Shown here piece by piece: positions 17,103 to 54,558 of a stretch of DNA of 64,000 bases. Source of the DNA: a virus (lineage: Duplodnaviria; Heunggongvirae; Uroviricota; Caudoviricetes); the IMG/VR virus record IMGVR_UViG_2713896899_000007, positions 7,041 to 71,040 of that record, one strand, 5' to 3'. The position numbers were made by a program, and so were the translations under genes. Under the pieces are notes generated by a model that saw only the letters and a list, made by a program, of their open reading frames with translations, did not search any database and was not told the DNA's origin. The stretch's first letter is position 1. Each line of letters begins with the position of its first letter.

Positions 17103-18359
17103 CTATCTAGAACCACCAAGAATAACACGGTTTTTGACTGGATACCTACGATGTACTGGATAGCCCAATGCGTCTGCACTATGCTCAATGCCACCTGTCT
17201 TATCCATATCTCGTGTTCCAGGCTTGTAGATGACTTTTTCCAGTGAATCAATCAAATGCTTGCACTTCGGATCGATATACAACCGGATATCTCCAGATGC
17301 GGTCATCAGCATTCGGTTAACAGCATTAACACGATCCGCAATTGGCGGGTGCTTTTTCGAATAATCGACACGTAAGAATCCCTTCTCTTTGAAAATGTCG
17401 ACGTCAGACTCCCCGCGAGCATGTTGGCGATAAGCACCTGCCGGATCTGGAAATACCGTTATCTGTGATTTCCAGCGCCAGAAGCGTCTCTCAAGCTCAT
17501 CACAAACCTCTGCCGTGTTAGAGGAAAAGAGCACCAATTCATCAATTGCCCATAGCTCACCATTTGGCTGAGGTTGCAAAATTACTGAAGACATCGGGTC
17601 AATGTTGAAGTCCTGCCCTACCCATATAGGCAACCGAGGGTTGAACTGAAGCGGTTTTACATGCACGTTACGATCGAACGGGTAGTAAACGCGCCCGGAC
17701 ATGTTCTCAAAGCTCGCCAGGTACTCCTGAGCGAACGATTTCGGGTCCATATCGTTCTTAGCAGCTTCAATTTCCGCCGTAGGTACAAACGGAGAATCGG
17801 CAGTTACAAACTGCCAGCTCTTCCACTGTCCCTTTCTTTGCAGCTCTACGTTCTGGCCTATAGTCCACAGTTTGTGAAATTCCGAGAAGCCTTTTGGCGT
17901 ACCAATGATCAGTGCACCGCCGCGTGTCGATGAAAGAGTAGGTCGTAACACCTTGTACCAGGTGTCAGCCTTCATATCCTGAAATTCATCAAGCACTACA
18001 AAATGCAACGCTACGCCGCGCAGAGTGTCAGGCTTATCAGCACCTTTGAGGGCGATCTCCGAACCGTTCTTCAACACGATTGTCATCGTGGTGTCGTTCT
18101 TTTTCCTAACCCACTTACGAGGCAGAACTTCCTGTAGATCGTCCCACAAAATCTGGCGAGCCATCTGGTAAGTAGGAGCGACATACCAGACTCTTTGCTT
18201 TTTTTCCTTTGCCGCCGCACGAATAATAGTGGAGATCGACAACCGGGATTTTCCCCAGCGTCGACCAGCACAAACAACTTTAAATCGATGCGGAGACTGG
18301 AAGACTTTCATCTGTCCAGAATGCAGTTGCACAAGACTGAGCGAGGACGGGATTGCCAT
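17103..18359 (-). CDS. Terminase large subunit
   Basis: Walker A-like VCAGRRWGKS, Walker B-like FVVLDEF, C-terminal nuclease-like region; follows small terminase. Confidence 0.8.
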   Translation of the reverse strand: MAIPSSLSLVQLHSGQMKVFQSPHRFKVVCAGRRWGKSRLSISTIIRAAAKEKKQRVWYVAPTYQMARQILWDDLQEVLPRKWVRKKNDTTMTIVLKNGSEIALKGADKPDTLRGVALHFVVLDEFQDMKADTWYKVLRPTLSSTRGGALIIGTPKGFSEFHKLWTIGQNVELQRKGQWKSWQFVTADSPFVPTAEIEAAKNDMDPKSFAQEYLASFENMSGRVYYPFDRNVHVKPLQFNPRLPIWVGQDFNIDPMSSVILQPQPNGELWAIDELVLFSSNTAEVCDELERRFWRWKSQITVFPDPAGAYRQHARGESDVDIFKEKGFLRVDYSKKHPPIADRVNAVNRMLMTASGDIRLYIDPKCKHLIDSLEKVIYKPGTRDMDKTGGIEHSADALGYPVHRRYPVKNRVILGGSR

Positions 18360-30137: not shown

Positions 30138-30188
30138 TTTTAATTCCTCGTTTGTTTTTGATGTGATAATTATCGCAGTCAGATTAAG

Positions 30189-30211
30189 GCAGAAAACAAA
30201 TTGTTATCGGG
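30189..30211 (-). promoter_or_regulatory. Early promoter/operator motif instance
   Basis: GCAGAAAACAAATTGTTATCGGG, with GATAAT-like hexamer downstream in the transcription direction. Confidence 0.45.
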
Positions 30212-31568: not shown

Positions 31569-31580
31569 AAAGCAATCCTT

Positions 31581-31614
31581 AAACAACATGTTTTCTTATT
31601 GGTGTTATTATCGC
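31581..31614 (-). promoter_or_regulatory. Early promoter/leader motif instance
   Basis: minus-strand GCGATAATAACACCAATAAGAAAACATGTTGTTT then AAGGA RBS. Confidence 0.45.
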
Positions 31615-31926
31615 AATAACGCACAGGCGAAAAAGGATTTTATTCCGGTGAATGTGGTTTTGGCAGTGAGTTTTCAGGTTCAGTACCGAGTACACTTTTT
31701 ACATTATTCTGATTTAGTGGCCGAAGATGGCTGGTGGGCAGAATAATCCTCTCCCCGAAAACCTACTGAAATCGATTGTGACCCGCTGGCTGTCTGGCAC
31801 AATTACGCTGTAGCTGGGCATTCAGAGGGAATCCAGCGGTAAGTTCGCCTGCACGTGAGCGCCTCTCTTCTTACCGCACATTACAGGTGGGTAGCCGCAA
31901 CTCTCCCTCACGCTATACCGGTACGC

Positions 31927-32060
31927 CACCGTTCCTGAACCGGCATCGAGCCTTTTCCCGAAATCCACACAGGCAACTCTACCGTTTCCCTGAAAATCCC
32001 CAGCCGTTCCCCGAAGGCAACCCAGCCGTTTCTGTAGCGGGATGCAGCCTTTCCCTGTAT
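31927..32060. repeat. Second array of CCGTTTCCC-type repeats (6 copies)
   Basis: ACCGTTCCTGAA, GCCTTTTCCCGAAATCC, ACCGTTTCCCTGAAAATCC, AGCCGTTCCCCGAAGG, AGCCGTTTCTG, AGCCTTTCCCTG. Confidence 0.6.
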
Positions 32061-32169
32061 GGACCGAAGGCTGACCGTAGGGGTGTTACGGGGGATAAAA
32101 TCAGGAGTTGAATAAATACGAAAAAGGAGGCGACACCCCTACTTCCCTCTCCACTTATACATACCAGGC

Positions 32170-32950
32170 TTCTTCGCTATACATGTTGTGTTTTCTTCGT
32201 GTTTTATCTGTCTCAACCTCTCTATAGGCGTTAATGCTCACTCCTACCAGAACGTTCTATACGGCGACTATTTCTGTTGGTGGATTAGGTGTGTTGTTTT
32301 CTCTGTCGGTGTATGTGGTTTCGTTCGTTTTGCGGTGGTTCTTCTATGGGGTGTTCTCGTCGTTTTGGTGATTGTTCTTCTCCGTATATGGAGTAATGGC
32401 AGGTGGGCGATTGCTTTCGTTATTGTGTTTGAGTTGTTTGTCTGGAGTGTGTGAAAGGCTTTTGTAGTTATTCGTGTATTGGGTAATGGCGTTTCCCGTG
32501 ATTGTTATGTTTCGTGTCTTTTGGGATTGAGAGAAACCTTGCGGTTACAGGCTTCGTTGGGGTTTCAGTGATTCTGGTGTTTCTTCGCTGTTTGGGGAAT
32601 GGCGTGTCGTGGGTATCGCGCGTGTGAATGTTTTCGGATTGCCTGTGAAAGTTAGGTTGGTTATCCGGTAGCCTGGGAAGAAGAGGTGGGTCTTTTCGGT
32701 AGCCTGCCATAAAGAGGTTGGTTGTTTTTGGGAATGGCATGTGTGTTATTTAGTTGTTTTGTTATGCCTGAAAATAAGTTGTTTATATGGTTGTGTAACG
32801 CAACGGGAGCGATTTTGAGCGTGTGTTTTTGTTGGTAGTGTGTTGAGTCGTCTGTGGTGAAAATTGGACGCTGTGGAGCTGTCTGCTGCGTAGGATTACG
32901 GGTATAAGAAGTGATGTGTGAAAACGTCAATTTTTTAGACCAAATCGGGA
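32170..32950. other. ORF-poor, strongly G+T-skewed repeat-rich region (candidate origin, centromere-like site or noncoding RNA locus)
   Basis: Top strand about 80-85 percent G+T in spot counts; at least 10 same-orientation GTTGTTTT(C) half-sites; four GGnAATGGC repeats at about 100-bp spacing (about 32395, 32485, 32598, 32730); only low-complexity ORFs. Confidence 0.5.
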
Positions 32951-33136
32951 GAAAGCGTTGATGTTTCGTTGATCTGTTATTTAGTTGTTTTCTTATTGGT
33001 ATAAACAACTGTAACCTATTGATATTTAAGGATGTGATTGCAGGCATGGAAGGGGAGTAGTGGCGATCAACGGATTCTTATAGAAAAGAATCAAATTGTG
33101 ACCGCCATTATCAACGGTTTGAATATGTTTGCAGAT

Positions 33137-33445
33137 TTACCAGTTCCAGCACTCAAGCCCTTCAACGACCGGCGCACCACAATCAAAATGTACAGAGTCA
33201 AAGCCTACATCAAGTACTTTCTGAATGTTAGCAATCGCGCCTTCGGATATACCATATCGACGCAAGTCGTCTTTCCAGACATCATCCTGTAACCCGGCGT
33301 GGACAATACAACCGCCATCAATTTGTGAAACCCAATCCAGCTCATTGCTTGCGATCATGAATCGGCGAGCATCTTCCTCTGATGTATGAGATGAACTGAT
33401 CAATGCCACCTGGTAGGCTTGGGTAATGTTCAACATTTCAACCAC
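33137..33445 (-). CDS. Hypothetical early protein
   Basis: 102-aa ORF; upstream both motif variants and a GATAAT hexamer (33448-33510). Confidence 0.4.
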   Translation of the reverse strand: MVEMLNITQAYQVALISSSHTSEEDARRFMIASNELDWVSQIDGGCIVHAGLQDDVWKDDLRRYGISEGAIANIQKVLDVGFDSVHFDCGAPVVEGLECWNW

Positions 33446-33496
33446 TCCAAAACAAGTTGTTTTCTTATGTGGCTTATTATCTCTAACAACAAAAGG

Positions 33497-33636
33497 CAGA
33501 AAACAAATTGTTTTAGGTACTGTGTAAATCAGAAGGGATTGTGTCTATATGAAAATGCCCGGCGTGTTGCCGGGCATTGCGAAGAGAGGTTGTTTAATTA
33601 CTTAACCTGGTGGCCAGGTTTAGCACCGGCATCCGG
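33497..33636. repeat. metG 3'-end repeat copy 1 (promoter motif + terminator + last 13 codons of metG)
   Basis: 140 bp, about 88 percent identical to 34367-34506; carries [12 protein letters not shown]-stop in frame. Confidence 0.8.
33554..33578 (-). terminator. Terminator hairpin within metG-end repeat copy 1 (serves the degenerate HD gene)
   Basis: AATGCCCGGC...GCCGGGCATT stem with U-run on minus strand. Confidence 0.5.
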
Positions 33637-34327
33637 CTGCAGGATGGGAGGTTACGTTCGCGCTATGTTGATATTCTGATTGACGCCATTTGTGCCAAAT
33701 CATCTCCTTATAGGATTCATATTGCGTTCGGTACTCTGGCTTCAAGTCAGATATGCCTTTATTCACTACCGCTCGTACGTTTACTAATAATTCGTGCTCA
33801 ATGCCTTTACTCTCTAAATATTCTACAACACCAGCATCGGGGCCAATTGCCCTGCCGTTAAAGACCATTTCCAGCATAAGCTCTGTTTCAGCAAAATAGA
33901 TAGGTGAGGAACCAGGTGCACACAGCTTAATAGCAGTAAGATTGTCCAACAGGTCGGCCAATTTAATCATTCGCGTCTGCATATCCAACGTCTTTTGCAA
34001 TTCGCGAACATTAATAATGAATCTCGCAAGACTATCGCCGTCGTCTGGTTTGGCAACGTTTGCCAGCGCCAGTACCATCTCAGCTACACGATTCCCGAAA
34101 TACTCGCGTACCATTTCGATAGTGATATGGGTATCTTCAATAACACCATGTAATAATGCAGCAGCCTGCATTTCGACAGTGCCTCCGTGCCAAGCAACAA
34201 TCTCACGCACAGAAACTGGGTGTGTAACGTAGTCTTCCCCCGTATATCTACGCTTCTTACCTACACCACCATACACTCCAACGGCAAACATATGAGCTTT
34301 ATCAACAATCGACATAATTTGCTCCAT
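33620..34327 (-). CDS. RelA/SpoT-type HD hydrolase paralog with substituted catalytic residues (probable pseudo-enzyme)
   Basis: About 65-70 percent identical to the hydrolase at 42687..43328, but AH-GQ became VY-GK and both HD became HG (WHGG, LLHGVIEDT); C-terminus runs into the duplicated metG 3' fragment in another frame. Confidence 0.6.
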   Translation of the reverse strand: MEQIMSIVDKAHMFAVGVYGGVGKKRRYTGEDYVTHPVSVREIVAWHGGTVEMQAAALLHGVIEDTHITIEMVREYFGNRVAEMVLALANVAKPDDGDSLARFIINVRELQKTLDMQTRMIKLADLLDNLTAIKLCAPGSSPIYFAETELMLEMVFNGRAIGPDAGVVEYLESKGIEHELLVNVRAVVNKGISDLKPEYRTQYESYKEMIWHKWRQSEYQHSANVTSHPAAGCRC

Positions 34328-34366
34328 TATTTTGTTAATACTGTTACTCTAACTGATAATAGAACG

Positions 34367-34506
34367 CAGAAAACAAATTGTTTTAGGGGCTGAGTAAATC
34401 AGAAGGGATTGCGTCTATATGAAAATGCCCAGCAATACGCTGGGCATTGTGAAGAATGGTTGTTTAGTTACTTAACTTGGTGGCCTGGTTTAGCACCAGC
34501 ATCCGG
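34367..34506. repeat. metG 3'-end repeat copy 2 (authentic metG terminus and terminator)
   Basis: Direct repeat of 33497-33636, offset 870 bp. Confidence 0.8.
34420..34448 (-). terminator. metG rho-independent terminator (within repeat copy 2)
   Basis: AATGCCCAGC...GCTGGGCATT stem followed by UUUU on minus strand, 20 bp after metG stop. Confidence 0.6.
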
Positions 34507-36501
34507 GCTTAACAGGAAGATATCTTTCCCGCCGGGGCCAGCAGCCATCACCATGCCTTCGGAGATACCGAAGCGCATTTTACGCGGAGCCAGGTTAGCC
34601 ACCATAATTGTGTGACGACCAATCAGTGCCTGTGGGTCTGGATAAGCAGAACGGATGCCTGAGAAGACATTACGCTTTTCACCACCGAGATCCAGTGTCA
34701 GGCGCAACAGTTTGTCAGAACCTTCAACAAACTCCGCGTTTTCAATCAGCGCCACACGCAGGTCAACTTTGGCGAAGTCGTCAAAGGTGATGGTTTCCTG
34801 AATCGGGTCGTCAGCCAGTGGGCCAGTAACTGGCGCGGCAGTAGCTTTCACTTCTTCTTTGGATGCTTCCACCAGTGCTTCCACCTGTTTCATATCGATA
34901 CGGTTATACAGTGCCTTGAACGGATTCACTTTATGGCCCAGCAGCGGTTGCTGGATACCATCCCAGGTCAGTTCTGTATTCAGGAATGCTTCTGCACGTT
35001 CAGTCAGTTTCGGCAGTACCGGTTTCAGATACGTCATCAGCACGCGGAACAGGTTAATGCCCATAGAGCAAATCGCCTGCAGATCTGCATCGCGACCTTC
35101 CTGCTTCGCCACCACCCACGGAGCCTGTTCATCGACATAGCGGTTAGCCAGGTCAGCCAATGCCATGATTTCACGGATAGCTTTACCAAATTCGCGGCTT
35201 TCCCATGCTTCGCCAATCACTTCAGCGGCATCAGTAAAGGTTTTGTACAGTTGCGGGTCAGCCAGTTCGCTTGCCAGCACGCCGTCAAAACGCTTGTTGA
35301 TAAAGCCTGCATTACGGGAGGCCAGGTTAACCACTTTGTTAACAATATCGGCATTCACTCGCTGAACGAAATCCTCCAGGTTGAGATCGATATCATCAAT
35401 GCGCGAAGAGAGTTTCGCAGTGTAGTAGTAACGCAGGCTGTCAGCGTCAAAATGATTCAGCCAGGTGCTGGCTTTAATAAAGGTGCCGCGAGACTTGGAC
35501 ATCTTCGCACCGTTCACCGTCACATAGCCATGAACAAACAGGTTGGTCGGCTTGCGGAAGTTGCTGCCTTCCAGCATGGCAGGCCAGAACAGACTGTGGA
35601 AGTAAACGATATCTTTACCGATGAAGTGGTACAGCTCGGCGGTGGAGTCTTTCTTCCAGTATTCATCGAAGCTGGTGGTATCGCCGCGCTTGTCGCACAG
35701 ATTCTTGAAGGAACCCATGTAGCCAATCGGTGCGTCCAGCCAGACGTAGAAATATTTACCCGGCGCGTTCGGAATTTCAAAACCGAAGTAAGGTGCGTCG
35801 CGGGAGATATCCCACTGTTGCAGACCAGATTCAAACCACTCCTGCATTTTGTTTGCCACCTGCTCCTGCAACGCACCGCTGCGGGTCCATGCCTGCAACA
35901 TTTCGCTGAAAGAGGGCAGATCAAAGAAGAAGTGTTCAGAATCACGCATTACCGGGGTAGCACCAGAAACCACCGATTTCGGCTCGATCAGTTCAGTCGG
36001 GCTGTAGGTCGCGCCACAAACTTCACAGTTATCGCCGTATTGATCTGGCGCTTTACATTTCGGGCAGGTGCCTTTCACAAAACGATCCGGCAGGAACATG
36101 CCTTTTTCCGGGTCGTACAACTGAGAGATAGTGCGGTTTTTAATAAAACCGTTCTCTTTCAGGCGAGTATAAATAAGCTCAGACAGCTGGCGGTTCTCTT
36201 CGCTGTGCGTCGAGTGATAGTTGTCATAGCTGATGTTAAAGCCTGCGAAATCAGTCTGGTGTTCCTGACTCATTTCGCCAATCATCTGCTCCGGTGTGAT
36301 ACCAAGTTGCTGTGCTTTCAGCATGATCGGCGTACCGTGGGCATCGTCGGCACAGATGAAATTAACCTCGTGGCCGCGCATTCGCTGGTAACGAACCCAG
36401 ACATCAGCCTGGATGTGCTCCAGCATATGGCCGAGGTGGATTGAGCCGTTAGCGTACGGCAGCGCGCACGTCACCAGAATTTTCTTCGCGACTTGGGTCA
36501 T
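34468..36501 (-). CDS. metG: Methionine--tRNA ligase
   Basis: 677 aa from ATG 36499-36501 ([26 protein letters not shown]...KMSKS...[10 protein letters not shown]); near-identical to E. coli MetG over full length as I recall it; the track ORF is extended upstream. Confidence 0.95.
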
Positions 36502-36658
36502 AGTAGGCATTACTTCTTTGTAGTGAAAAGGGGCTTGATAGTAACAAAATGGCCTTATGTCTGCCATGTGATAACAGCATTTCTCATAAATGATTAAATG
36601 TCGTAGCTGGAGTACACTACAAGGCGACAATTGCGCAAATTAAAATAAAGGAGACGGG

Positions 36659-37759
36659 ATGAGCGAGTCCAAATCGCCGGATGCCCTGAGAGCAATGGTA
36701 GCCGGTACGCTGGCTAATTTTCAGCACCCAACCCTGAAACACAACCTGACTACGCTTAAAGCGTTACACCATGTTGCGTTGATGGATGACACACTGCATG
36801 TCGAACTAATCATGCCTTTCGTGTGGAATAAGCCTTTTGAAGACCTGAAAGAGCAATGTAGTGGTGATCTGCTCCGTATCACTGGCGCAAAGGCTATTGA
36901 CTGGAAGCTGTCGTACAACATTGCCACGCTTAAGCGCGTCAAAAACCAACCAGGCATTAATGGTGTTAAGAATATTATCGCCGTAAGCTCAGGCAAGGGC
37001 GGTGTAGGCAAATCGTCCACAGCAGTAAACTTGGCACTGGCGTTGGCTGCTGAAGGTGCGAAAGTTGGTATTTTGGATGCCGATATCTACGGGCCATCAA
37101 TACCAACCATGCTGGGCGCGGAAAACCAACGTCCAACCTCACCGGACGGTACTCACATGGCACCTATCATGTCTCATGGCCTGGCAACCAATTCAATTGG
37201 CTATCTGGTCACCGACGACAATGCAATGGTGTGGCGTGGACCGATGGCCAGCAAGGCGCTGATGCAGATGTTGCAGGAAACACTGTGGCCTGATCTGGAC
37301 TATCTCGTTCTCGATATGCCGCCGGGCACTGGTGATATTCAGTTGACGCTGGCGCAGAACATTCCTGTAACTGGTGCGGTTGTGGTAACTACGCCGCAAG
37401 ACATCGCGCTGATCGATGCGAAGAAAGGCATTGTGATGTTCGAAAAAGTCGAAGTGCCAGTACTGGGTATCGTTGAAAACATGAGTGTGCATATTTGCAG
37501 TAACTGCGGTCATCACGAGCCAATTTTTGGCACCGGTGGCGCACAGAAACTGGCCGAGAAATACAACACGCAGTTGTTAGGCCAAATGCCACTTCATATC
37601 TCTCTTCGTGAAGATCTGGATAACGGAACACCAACCGTTATTAGTCGTCCAGATAGTGAATTTACGGCTATTTATCGTGACCTCGCAGATCGCGTTGCTG
37701 CCCAAATGTATTGGCAAGGTGAAGTAATACCTGGCGAAATCGCATTCCGCGCAGTGTGA
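36659..37759 (+). CDS. apbC: Fe-S cluster carrier ATPase Mrp/ApbC
   Basis: 366 aa, SGKGGVGKS P-loop, CxxC motif; near-identical to E. coli Mrp; divergent from metG as in Escherichia chromosomes. Confidence 0.95.
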   Translation: MSESKSPDALRAMVAGTLANFQHPTLKHNLTTLKALHHVALMDDTLHVELIMPFVWNKPFEDLKEQCSGDLLRITGAKAIDWKLSYNIATLKRVKNQPGINGVKNIIAVSSGKGGVGKSSTAVNLALALAAEGAKVGILDADIYGPSIPTMLGAENQRPTSPDGTHMAPIMSHGLATNSIGYLVTDDNAMVWRGPMASKALMQMLQETLWPDLDYLVLDMPPGTGDIQLTLAQNIPVTGAVVVTTPQDIALIDAKKGIVMFEKVEVPVLGIVENMSVHICSNCGHHEPIFGTGGAQKLAEKYNTQLLGQMPLHISLREDLDNGTPTVISRPDSEFTAIYRDLADRVAAQMYWQGEVIPGEIAFRAV

Positions 37760-37764
37760 TAAAA

Positions 37765-38222: not shown

Positions 38223-38358
38223 TACATGAAAGAAGCTCACTCAGTGCAACTGATCGGTACATAGCACCAGACAAAGGAACATTATTTTCTCGAACAAGAA
38301 AAGGTAGAAAACAAATTGTTTAAGGCCACAGCTAGTGGCCTTAATGGAGAAGGGATGC

Positions 38359-41696: not shown

Positions 41697-42148
41697 TGTT
41701 TATTTCCTTTGCGAAGATCAGCGGCGAAGGCTACTGCGTGATCATGATGTTCAAGTGTGTATGCACACTCAGCAAACATCTCCACGCCCTGCGCACGTAC
41801 TTCAGCCAGAAAAGCATCGGTGGCTGGAGTCTCCGTTAATTCGCTAACCCAATTATCTCCGTGTTCCTCGGCACACATCGCATCGAATGCTCGCTCAGAT
41901 TCTTTCAGGGCTGCATTCTCCGCCGCTAATGCGTCTCTCTGCGCCCGCAACTTCTCAATTTCGGCAGCCATGTAGTAACCAACCATAGCGAAAGTGGCGA
42001 AAGGGTAGTCCGAATCATCAGGAGATACGGAGGCCATTAGCAGACCATCGTGCATGTTCTGGCTTCCATCAGTGATAGATACCGCATAAGAATCGCTGGT
42101 TTCCCGCTTATACAATACGACGACCGGGTTCTTGATTTTCTCTCTCAT
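41693..42148 (-). CDS. Hypothetical protein
   Basis: 151-aa ORF, Ala/Glu-rich helical. Confidence 0.4.
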   Translation of the reverse strand: MREKIKNPVVVLYKRETSDSYAVSITDGSQNMHDGLLMASVSPDDSDYPFATFAMVGYYMAAEIEKLRAQRDALAAENAALKESERAFDAMCAEEHGDNWVSELTETPATDAFLAEVRAQGVEMFAECAYTLEHHDHAVAFAADLRKGNKQ

Positions 42149-42702
42149 TACGATGCCTCTAACTTGTCTAACTCTTTCAGCCCTTCACGTACCGCGTTCA
42201 CAATGCGTTCCAGATACTGGTATTTCGGGTTTGGTACCGTTGGCCAGTCGGCATACCACGGATCATCACCAAAGAGATTCAGTAGTTTGTTACCGACGCC
42301 GAAACAGCAGCAGCTTTCTTTTACGTCATCGGCGTTTTCCGCCTCGTCCCACATTTCGCGAGCCAGTACGGCGTCTATTTCTCTCTCTCTTCGTAACTTT
42401 ATGATTTCTGACTTCACGAAAAGCAGATTTGCATCGTTGTCATCGTCGACCGTGCTTCGCAGTTGAGGGTCGAAATAGCCGATTAGATACTCGTTGCTGA
42501 CCCGCTTAATGAACGTCTGCACATCATCACCGCCCATAGCAAACCAAGCCGCAGTCCACGCTTTTCCGTAGCAGGTGATGGTGATTCTTCCCTTACCAGG
42601 TTCGTAGTTTTCAATCATCACTCGAACCGGATCGAGGCGTTCCAGATCCGTCAGCACAAAGGAAAGAACATCTATTTTTTCGATCTTCATGCAGCCTCCC
42701 AC
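42148..42702 (-). CDS. Hypothetical protein
   Basis: 184-aa ORF; probable start at internal Met (MKIEKIDV). Confidence 0.4.
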   Translation of the reverse strand: MGGCMKIEKIDVLSFVLTDLERLDPVRVMIENYEPGKGRITITCYGKAWTAAWFAMGGDDVQTFIKRVSNEYLIGYFDPQLRSTVDDDNDANLLFVKSEIIKLRREREIDAVLAREMWDEAENADDVKESCCCFGVGNKLLNLFGDDPWYADWPTVPNPKYQYLERIVNAVREGLKELDKLEAS

Positions 42703-43328
42703 GCGCTCCAGATCAGCGATTTGTGTTTTTCATAACGTTTGATGTGTACCGGTTTCAGAAGCGCAATACCTTCAGTGACTTTCGCCATTGCGCTTAATAA
42801 CAACGGGTGTTCTATACCTATCCTCTCCATGTACTCGACAACATCAGCGTTGGCACCAATCTCCTTCCCGTTAAAAAGTACGTCCAGCATCAGCTCTTTC
42901 TCTGCAAGGTAGATAGCTGAAAACTCAGGATCGCGACTCACGATAGAAGAGGTATTGTCGAGCAGGTCAGCCAGCTTGATCATGCGCGTCTGCATGTCGA
43001 GATTTTGCTCCAGCTCCCGGACATTGATGATGAAACGCTGTATTCGATTGCCGTCTTCTGGCCTTGCGATGTTGGTCAGAGCCTGAACCATTTCAGCTAC
43101 GCGCTCACCGAAGTGATCACGAACCATCTCTATGGTTACATTGGTGTCTTCGACCACATCATGCAGAAGCGCCGCGATTTGCATCTCCACGGTTCCGTCA
43201 TGCAATGCAACAATCTCTCGGACAGCAACCGGGTGGTTGATGTAGTCTTCGCCGGTATATTTTCTTTTCTGACCAACGCCACCATGAGCGCCAGCGGCGA
43301 ACATATGTGCTTCGGAAATACTAGACAT
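42687..43328 (-). CDS. Small alarmone hydrolase (RelA/SpoT-type HD-domain (p)ppGpp/(p)ppApp hydrolase)
   Basis: Complete RSH hydrolase motifs AHGGVGQKRKYTGEDYINHP, ALHDG, LLHDVVEDT; single-domain 213 aa. Confidence 0.7.
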   Translation of the reverse strand: MSSISEAHMFAAGAHGGVGQKRKYTGEDYINHPVAVREIVALHDGTVEMQIAALLHDVVEDTNVTIEMVRDHFGERVAEMVQALTNIARPEDGNRIQRFIINVRELEQNLDMQTRMIKLADLLDNTSSIVSRDPEFSAIYLAEKELMLDVLFNGKEIGANADVVEYMERIGIEHPLLLSAMAKVTEGIALLKPVHIKRYEKHKSLIWSAWEAA

Positions 43329-43447
43329 TCTTAACTCCGTTGTTTTCTAGTTGTGGTTATTTTCACAAATAAGAAAAGGTAGAAAACAATTTATTTAAGG
43401 CCACAACTTATGGCCTTTATTTATTCATGCAGAAGAATTTGTAGCGT

Positions 43448-53672: not shown

Positions 53673-54148
53673 TACGACCTTCTGTATACGATCTGCGAAA
53701 AGCCAGGCTCTTCCTCGCTGGCTCGTTGGGTATAAGCTGTTTCAACAGGCACAAAGCCTAAGTTACGCATCATGCTTGCCGGGAAGAATGCATCGGCGTT
53801 TGGTACATCAACGCCGATGTGGGAGAGCCAAATCTCTTCAACATGCGGCATGAATAGCGAGTAAATTTGTTCCCCGCCAATCACCCACACAGGCTCTGGT
53901 AATCGCAACACATCATCCACACCAGCAGGGTAGAATCCATTTGGTACAAAGCCATGAGAGCGCGTCAAAACGAGGTTATGACGCTCTGGAAGAGGGCGTT
54001 TGAGACTTTCCATCGTTTTACGCCCCATAACGACAGTGGCGTTTTTGGTGAGTCTCTTAAATAGCTTCAGATCGGTAGAACAACGCCAGGGCAGTTCGTT
54101 CGCTATGCCGATCTCATAGTTACGGCCAACAGCAGCTATCATCTTCAT
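53672..54148 (-). CDS. folA: Dihydrofolate reductase
   Basis: MIAAVGRNYEIG...LPWR...VVMGRKT...VIGGEQIY pattern typical of DHFR; 158 aa. Confidence 0.85.
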   Translation of the reverse strand: MKMIAAVGRNYEIGIANELPWRCSTDLKLFKRLTKNATVVMGRKTMESLKRPLPERHNLVLTRSHGFVPNGFYPAGVDDVLRLPEPVWVIGGEQIYSLFMPHVEEIWLSHIGVDVPNADAFFPASMMRNLGFVPVETAYTQRASEEEPGFSQIVYRRS

Positions 54149-54558
54149 TTGCTCACCTCATAGATGACCGGTCTATGATGAGAGTCAGCTAAAGCGGCAC
54201 GGAGTCGAGGATCGTGCACCAGCGCAGCGATAAGCAGATCGCCTTTATGCTCCGCTAATGTGCGCTTAATATGCTTCTCATAACTGGTGCCATTCGGTAC
54301 AAGATGAAGCCAGTCGTAATCAACGCCAAAATCTTTCAGCCATCGTTTAGTGGGCGCTTCAAGAGTTTCAGAGCGGCTACTGATAAGCACCACTTCAGCC
54401 CCTGAGCGAGCAAAACCACGCAACATACGGCTGGTGGGGAAAATGAGTTCATCACCGGCAATGAGCTGGCCTGCATCCGCGTCAGATACAGATTTACGAT
54501 GGCTGGTATTTGCCAGCACACCTTCAATTTCGCATAAGACATACATACCTCTTGCCAT
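54145..54558 (-). CDS. Hypothetical protein (possible HAD-like phosphatase)
   Basis: Start set to internal Met 54558 to avoid a 47-bp overlap with thyA; no canonical DxD motif seen. Confidence 0.35.
   Translation of the reverse strand: MARGMYVLCEIEGVLANTSHRKSVSDADAGQLIAGDELIFPTSRMLRGFARSGAEVVLISSRSETLEAPTKRWLKDFGVDYDWLHLVPNGTSYEKHIKRTLAEHKGDLLIAALVHDPRLRAALADSHHRPVIYEVSK

Follow-up and report, generated by a model that had tools for sequence, protein, structure and literature searches.

A small-alarmone-hydrolase homolog with a degenerate active site, possibly a retained pseudoenzyme, on an SSU5-type phage-plasmid of E. coli

[quoted passage not shown] It is found in the window, the whole stretch of 64,000 nucleotides analysed here, together with a second gene of the same family (gene 2) that is intact by its motifs. 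With roughly even chances in our judgement, gene 1 is a pseudoenzyme, derived from the PaSpo of another lineage, acquired as a cassette and kept for a non-catalytic, perhaps partner-binding role.

We assign the window to the E. coli phage-plasmids of the SSU5/pHCM2 type on the grounds of its gene content, its synteny with Salmonella phage SSU5 and related Salmonella plasmids of pHCM2 size. Its positions 32000-37000 are 99.9% identical to the 110-kb E. coli plasmid p009_B (NZ_CP048306.1), which is annotated with tail, capsid, portal, terminase, ParB, helicase, RepB, nrdAB and thyA genes, with a metG-apbC block resembling that of the host, and with two 'HD domain-containing proteins'. This host-derived block lies at 34468-37760 of the window, with metG directly upstream of gene 1 (Table 1). 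Every one of the 5426 complete E. coli genomes has a partial chromosomal match to the metG-apbC region, in most cases at 90-95% identity, and the full-length block is common to about 169 plasmids. Besides, at about 53680-54160 (97672-98148 of NZ_CP048306.1) a trimethoprim-resistant dihydrofolate reductase, dfrA51, is annotated, adjoining thyA and nrdAB in a block of nucleotide metabolism. A 1.5-kb stretch at about 31570-33130 is without annotated gene in the identical record, has no Rfam match, and contains repeated 22-mers TGTTATTTAGTTGTTTTGTTAT at 32744, 32959 and 32975; it might serve an iteron-like or regulatory purpose. Overall, Rfam and tRNA scans gave no matches, no defence-system model of PADLOC or NCBIfam was matched, and the RelA/SpoT matches were all below threshold.

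The two single-domain RSH-hydrolase-like reading frames pointed out in a preliminary description of this DNA are both present, and both pass the Pfam HD_4 gathering threshold (57.3 bits for gene 1, with a cut-off of 27.2). Their products share 63% identity over 210 aa (E = 1e-100). The span first given for gene 1, 33620-34327, has the reading frame in the right place but starts at an upstream ATG (34327), an alternative start that would yield 235 aa. We instead adopt the second ATG, at 34315, since it is preceded at 6 nt by a GGAG Shine-Dalgarno sequence, is the PGAP start in the 99.9%-identical record, and aligns with residue 1 of gene 2, whose own start region is similar (GGAG, 7 nt, then ATG).

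Table 1. Coordinates of the features discussed, in window positions
Feature	Position	Strand	Basis or remark
Gene 1, 231-aa PaSpo-family small-alarmone-hydrolase homolog, degenerate active site (Y15, K20, G57)	33620..34315	-	ORF, Pfam HD_4, PGAP start
Gene 2, 213-aa SAH, catalytically intact by motifs	42687..43328	-	ORF, Pfam HD_4, synteny
phiTE_072-family gene (PF26211), overlapping the gene 2 stop	42148..42690	-	Synteny; no counterpart beside gene 1
metG (methionine-tRNA ligase)	34468..36501	-	Host-derived; directly upstream of gene 1
GGAG Shine-Dalgarno, 6 nt upstream of ATG 34315	34322..34325	-	Sequence read
Direct repeat copy 1 (metG 3' fragment, terminator hairpin, 23-nt motif)	33457..33636		Type found in related plasmids without gene 1
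Direct repeat copy 2 (real metG 3' end, hairpin, motif)	34327..34506		81% identical to copy 1
23-nt motif CCTAAAACAATTTGTTTTCTGCG, 50 nt upstream of gene 1 start	34365..34387	-	Left end of homology to the P0002 locus
23-nt motif, the same, 50 nt upstream of gene 2 start	43378..43400	-	Motif search
34-nt filler, begins with CAA replacing the ancestral TAA stop; encodes most of the C-terminal extension	33637..33670	-	P0002 3' end alignment, sequence
39-nt copy of metG 3' end	33598..33636	-	Gene 1 reads the first 17 nt out of frame

By structure prediction, gene 1 is a single-domain, all-helical HD_4 fold of the SAH type. AlphaFold2 gives a mean pLDDT of 86.2 and a pTM of 0.84 for gene 1, and 91.8 and 0.89 for gene 2, with the same helices in the two models; the confidence for gene 1 dips only at residues 11-30, at residues 131-140 and in the last nine residues. 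A Foldseek search of the PDB with the gene 1 model retrieves MESH1, RelH, PaSAH, a (p)ppApp hydrolase, and the Rel and SpoT hydrolase domains. Structure prediction had been proposed as a check for a lost metal site and a kept nucleotide pocket; the SAH fold is predicted to be kept, and preservation of the pocket is argued against by the substitutions around it described below.

The two proteins differ in the active site. Gene 2, with the motifs AHGGVGQKR, HP, LLHDVVEDT and KLADLLDN, has the full catalytic set that had been ascribed to it, namely all six published RSH-hydrolase motifs (PMC9293644): HD1 R22, HD2 H32, HD3 H56-D57, HD4 E60-D61, HD5 D121 and HD6 N125. The same motifs in gene 1 read VYGGVGKKR, HP, LLHGVIEDT and KLADLLDN. 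Gene 1 thus keeps the HD1 Arg (R22), the ED diad of HD4 (E60, D61), the HD6 Asn (N125) and a conserved Tyr, Y29. The Mn-binding 2H2D site (HD2 His, HD3 His-Asp, HD5 Asp) is incomplete, with H32, H56 and D121 present and the HD3 Asp replaced by G57, and the AH..GQ.R element carries Y15 and K20. Among 152 homologs, which are representatives of 50%-identity clusters, D57 and H56 are found in all 152, H15 in 150, and Q or H at position 20 in 150, showing that the His-to-Tyr and Gln-to-Lys changes noticed at first sight are located at near-invariant positions. The preliminary description also held that both Asp of the HD pairs had changed to Gly, and proposed an alignment to characterised RSH hydrolases as a check. 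This alignment separates the two. In the HMMER alignment, LLHGVIEDT of gene 1 stands opposite LLHDVIEDT of Acinetobacter baumannii SpoT, so that G57 corresponds to SpoT D79, a part of the 2H2D Mn site which is proposed to contact the second metal too (PMC11554896), and D57G therefore strikes the HD3 metal ligand. In contrast, D44G is irrelevant to catalysis, since the experimentally active SSU5 PaSpo itself has G44 and the position is not conserved.

On the whole, the gene 1 cluster includes 17 distinct proteins on about 170 contigs, nearly all of them E. coli elements of about 110 kb, and an IMG/VR scan gives only one further copy. Y15, K20 and G57 are common to all 17 variants wherever these residues are covered (two partial variants are without the N-terminus), and D57 is restored in none. 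As they are shared by all covered variants on so many contigs, the substitutions are neither chance nor sequencing error. In the sister allele (NZ_CP027369.1; variant P0018, 54 contigs), the HD3 His is lost as well, giving LLNG (H56N), a second loss of a metal ligand that would be expected once the metal site stops mattering. Rarer variants have P33L in 'HP' and T62P in 'EDT'.

Judged from its sequence and from mutagenesis of homologs, the gene 1 protein is very probably without pyrophosphohydrolase activity. In ATfaRel, the D54A mutation of the homologous Asp abolishes the neutralisation of FaRel (PMC7229694), and D78A in RelSeq is reported to abolish hydrolysis (Hogg 2004, as cited in PMC13299517). 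With D57G, the loss of H15 and Q20, and H56N in one sublineage, the protein would most likely be unable to remove the 3'-pyrophosphate by hydrolysis, be it from (p)ppGpp, (p)ppApp or pyrophosphorylated tRNA. That it is still an enzyme, with a remodelled site, altered metal ligation or a new substrate, we consider highly unlikely: the window allele does have the ED diad and all 2H2D ligands but one of the four, and PaSAH gives a precedent in being active despite a Leu at HD1 (PMC9293644), but the HD3 Asp is invariant among the 152 homologs, its mutation kills related proteins (PMC7229694, PMC13299517), and the sister sublineage is missing two of the four metal ligands.

Gene 2, by its sequence and gene order, is a syntenic ortholog of SSU5 PaSpo (SSU5_099), with 87% identity; gene 1 has 68% identity to the same protein. 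SSU5 PaSpo neutralises all five toxSAS toxins tested (PMC7229694, Table 1), strips the tRNA modification put on by FaRel2 (PMC11245113), and is in routine use for detoxifying CapRel during expression (PMC9712102). In every PaSpo-bearing locus examined (the window, L016 and L018-L022), the phiTE_072-family gene overlaps PaSpo and lies downstream of it, and the two are jointly absent from the plasmid locus L014; the pair looks like a two-gene module. Truncated or chimeric derivatives are recurrent in the PaSpo family (P0009, P0010, P0013-P0015). They include a 139-aa truncation on 139 contigs, a fusion of an AAA-ATPase N-terminus with the C-terminal two-thirds of PaSpo, and a fusion of the N-terminus of an upstream 234-aa protein with the PaSpo C-terminus; all three fused types are without the catalytic N-terminal half.

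The origin of gene 1 can be read from its surroundings. In relatives without gene 1, for example pSEV1_2, metG is followed by a hairpin, a 23-nt motif and then a DUF5983 gene, while the window has an extra 870 bp between the copies of a 180-nt direct repeat. Of the two repeat copies, the one lying between metG and gene 1 represents a diverged allele of this plasmid region, and only its metG coding part has a match on the E. coli chromosome. The closest intact relative of gene 1 (P0002/P0031), 215 aa long, with intact HD motifs and 74% identity, is located in another E. coli phage-plasmid lineage, downstream of a DUF4942 gene, which is broadly the PaSpo position. The blastn match of the gene 1 DNA to the P0002 locus has 78.8% identity over 716 nt; it starts precisely with the 23-nt motif and extends to the P0002 stop. 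Gene 1 is thus, on this sequence evidence, best described as a xenolog that was acquired by insertion of an 870-bp cassette after metG: its ancestor would be the PaSpo allele of another lineage of SSU5-like phage-plasmids, and a cassette of the 23-nt upstream motif, the leader and the gene would have recombined into the site directly after metG. The earlier term paralog is loose, since synonymous sites between the two genes are saturated and the nearest relative belongs to a different plasmid lineage; on the same grounds tandem duplication of gene 2 is ruled out. An integrative element at a metG att site is ruled out too, as an integrase is missing, plasmid-specific intergenic sequence forms part of the repeat, the divergent copy of the repeat is a plasmid-region allele, and the chromosome shares nothing of it beyond metG coding sequence.

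The 23-nt motif CCTWAAAYAAWTTGTTTTCTRCC occurs five times in the window, always on the minus strand (30188-30210, 33495-33517, 34365-34387, 38303-38325 and 43378-43400), with 0 copies expected by chance, and comes after a hairpin in the four copies inspected. It gives no sigma-70 match, and in scans for sigma-70 promoters and terminators around genes 1 and 2 the minus-strand matches do not exceed what shuffled sequence yields. The motif might serve as a promoter or operator specific to this family, or as the boundary of a recombination module.

The C-terminal extension into metG-derived repeat sequence, already noticed in the preliminary description, is real. P0002 ends in ...WRQSEY-TAA, and gene 1 has CAA in place of this stop and reads through the filler into the metG 3' fragment, where its stop codon is found (33620-33622). 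In the NG sublineage the tail is different, with a 4-nt deletion and an AAA-to-TAA change. As the tail is sublineage-specific, predicted by AlphaFold2 to be disordered, and made of filler and an out-of-frame fragment after a lost stop, it looks like a by-product of the junction.

We now consider whether gene 1 is retained or decaying. Thirteen of the 17 variants have full length (230-235 aa), none of the 13 having an early stop, and the others are partial or late-starting. The window and NG alleles are separated by 9-11 synonymous and 6-8 nonsynonymous changes, giving an omega of 0.18-0.20, and neutrality is rejected for this pair (binomial p = 0.0007-0.0017), an estimate based on 15-19 substitutions and two sublineages. 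For comparison, gene 2 of the same plasmid pair has an omega of 0.055 at equal dS, and gene 1 against the intact P0002 has 0.15 at a dS of 0.93. Thus gene 1 looks retained, probably under purifying selection and not freely decaying, in accordance with the initial impression of a retained but inactivated copy, the inactivity being judged by homology and the metal-site Asp being lost in all covered variants.

The changes are unevenly distributed along the protein. In a relative-rate test, gene 1 is the faster-evolving of the two, with 28 lineage-specific replacements to 11 in P0002 (chi-square 7.4). We define the active-site shell as residues 12-33, 54-62 and 118-140, which cover the HD motifs and both loops by which RelSeq closes over its substrate (PMC13299517). 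Within the shell gene 1 has 12 lineage-specific changes and P0002 none, while outside it the numbers are 16 and 11, a difference that is not significant. The excess of gene 1 is concentrated in the shell, 12 of 17 changes falling within 26% of the codons (p = 1e-4), with the counts being small and the boundaries, though following published motifs and loops, having been drawn after the substitutions were seen. Among the changes are A12V, A14V, H15Y, Q20K and K23R in the HD1 loop, and S127T, R132C, D133A, F136S and A138P in the loop after HD6, with L141F and K144T nearby; these two segments are otherwise near-invariant among PaSpo alleles. No shift in charge or pI that might be a sign of lost tRNA binding is found in gene 1. 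This pattern supports a pseudoenzyme, in which the active site would be freed from constraint with the scaffold still constrained.

The main rival, which we hold unlikely, is the decay of a redundant copy: gene 1 would be superfluous beside the resident PaSpo and on its way to a pseudogene, its reading frame staying open only owing to a recent inactivation. Gene 1 is indeed redundant with gene 2 in nearly all carriers, has lost its stop, and has lost catalytic residues in a stepwise way (D57G, then H56N, P33L and T62P) within a family rich in truncated and fused derivatives. It is also rare, being present in two of the 5426 complete E. coli genomes (gene 2 is in about 36-41), and this rarity and the sublineage-specific tail fit a dispensable gene. 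However, the omega above, significantly below 1, is reached after the inactivating change, and the rate outside the shell equals that of the intact sister. Under neutrality of the whole gene the excess would be spread evenly with codon numbers, which it is not, and the reading frame, Shine-Dalgarno sequence and upstream motif are intact in both sublineages.

A third possibility is the one favoured at first, that the nucleotide pocket is kept and the protein serves as an alarmone or nucleotide sponge, or a substrate trap, with (p)ppGpp, (p)ppApp or a relative bound uncleaved in the old pocket. Alarmones reach high concentrations in the cell, so that binding them one by one would be costly. R22, the HD1 Arg that contacts the base, is kept, as are Y29, N125, E60, D61, H32 and D121, but the pocket shell, including both gating loops (for their roles see PMC13299517), is the fastest-evolving part of the protein, and further motif residues vary inside the clade (H56N, P33L, T62P). 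A metal-poor site should moreover bind weakly, since Mn and the 3'-diphosphate mutually stabilise each other's binding (PMC11554896). The sponge proposal is weakened by these results, and we regard it as very unlikely.

We return to the pseudoenzyme with a partner. As constraint appears to be lifted only in the active-site shell, the remainder of the protein being under purifying selection, we infer that gene 1 is probably kept for a non-catalytic role that depends on the fold or the surface. The recipient plasmid would have had its own active PaSpo in nearly all cases examined: gene 2 is present within 10 kb in nine of the 11 gene-1 loci, with a probable further case in a tenth, which is truncated at its edge, while about 23% of related complete plasmids have gene 2. 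SAHs are dimers that associate via N-terminal helices (PMC9293644). Considering this dimerisation and the co-occurrence with gene 2, our best guess for the role is partner binding, either as a hetero-oligomer with the co-resident PaSpo or as a PaSpo stand-in; the identity of the partner is a guess. The co-occurrence may also be mere shared ancestry, and strict dependence of gene 1 on gene 2 is not required, since the natural plasmid of L014 (GCA_020657075.1) has an identical gene 1 and no gene 2. This plasmid also has a small ORF at 17694-17993 of the locus with a weak match to PF26829 (ValRS_modifier).

A more far-reaching version of the pseudoenzyme, quite unlikely in our view, is that gene 1 is a functional pseudo-hydrolase forming a third layer in the toxSAS-SAH conflict, as a PaSpo-shielding decoy or partner, or as a tuner. 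In the shielding variant, gene 1 could keep an inhibitor or sensor of the host away from the active PaSpo; in the tuning variant, it could moderate PaSpo in the plasmid (lysogenic) state and spare the (p)ppGpp signalling of the host.

Phage SAHs are known as a catalytic counter to toxSAS abortive-infection toxins. In the full-text literature searched, neither a stand-alone inactive SAH nor a pair of active and dead SAHs on a phage or plasmid turned out to be described, in agreement with the preliminary description, which knew of no such pair. If retained and inactive, gene 1 would be the first stand-alone pseudo-SAH found described within this literature, and one standing beside an active enzyme; it would mean a non-enzymatic function of the SAH fold in phage-host or plasmid-host conflict. 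If inert, it would still be a clean case of redundancy after cassette acquisition eroding the active site first. The HG and NG alleles, together with the 74%-identical intact relative, make a natural comparison set, and the case is relevant to the fields of RSH enzymes and of phage counter-defence.

Finally, we compare gene 1 with known systems. Gene 1 shares with SSU5 PaSpo the family, the fold and the length class, including a C-terminal helical part that other SAHs lack, and differs in having lost the HD3 Asp as well as H and Q in AH..GQ.R, in its 16-aa unstructured tail, in its site after metG, and in having no phiTE_072 neighbour. As its descent and fold fit the PaSpo SAH family and the defining metal site fails, gene 1 should, on present sequence evidence, be filed as a degenerate PaSpo-family derivative and not as a hydrolase. 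The phage proteins Tad1, Tad2 and Acb2 are nucleotide sponges, which neutralise a signal by binding and not by degradation; they have no sequence or fold relation to gene 1, whose pocket conservation is unlike what is expected of a sponge. ATfaRel and PbcSpo of phage PVP-SE1 share with gene 1 the single-domain RSH-hydrolase type and the location on mobile elements. These two counter toxSAS and need catalysis to do so, as the failure of ATfaRel D54A shows (PMC7229694), whereas in gene 1 the corresponding Asp is naturally lost. In concept, the closest precedent is found in RelA, whose pseudo-hydrolase domain has the RSH hydrolase fold, has lost catalysis and yet is kept, its role being regulatory (PMC8012599, PMC3153485). 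The dead domain of RelA, however, is part of a multidomain protein and acts intramolecularly, while gene 1 is stand-alone, is carried by a phage-plasmid, and is far younger and less diverged.
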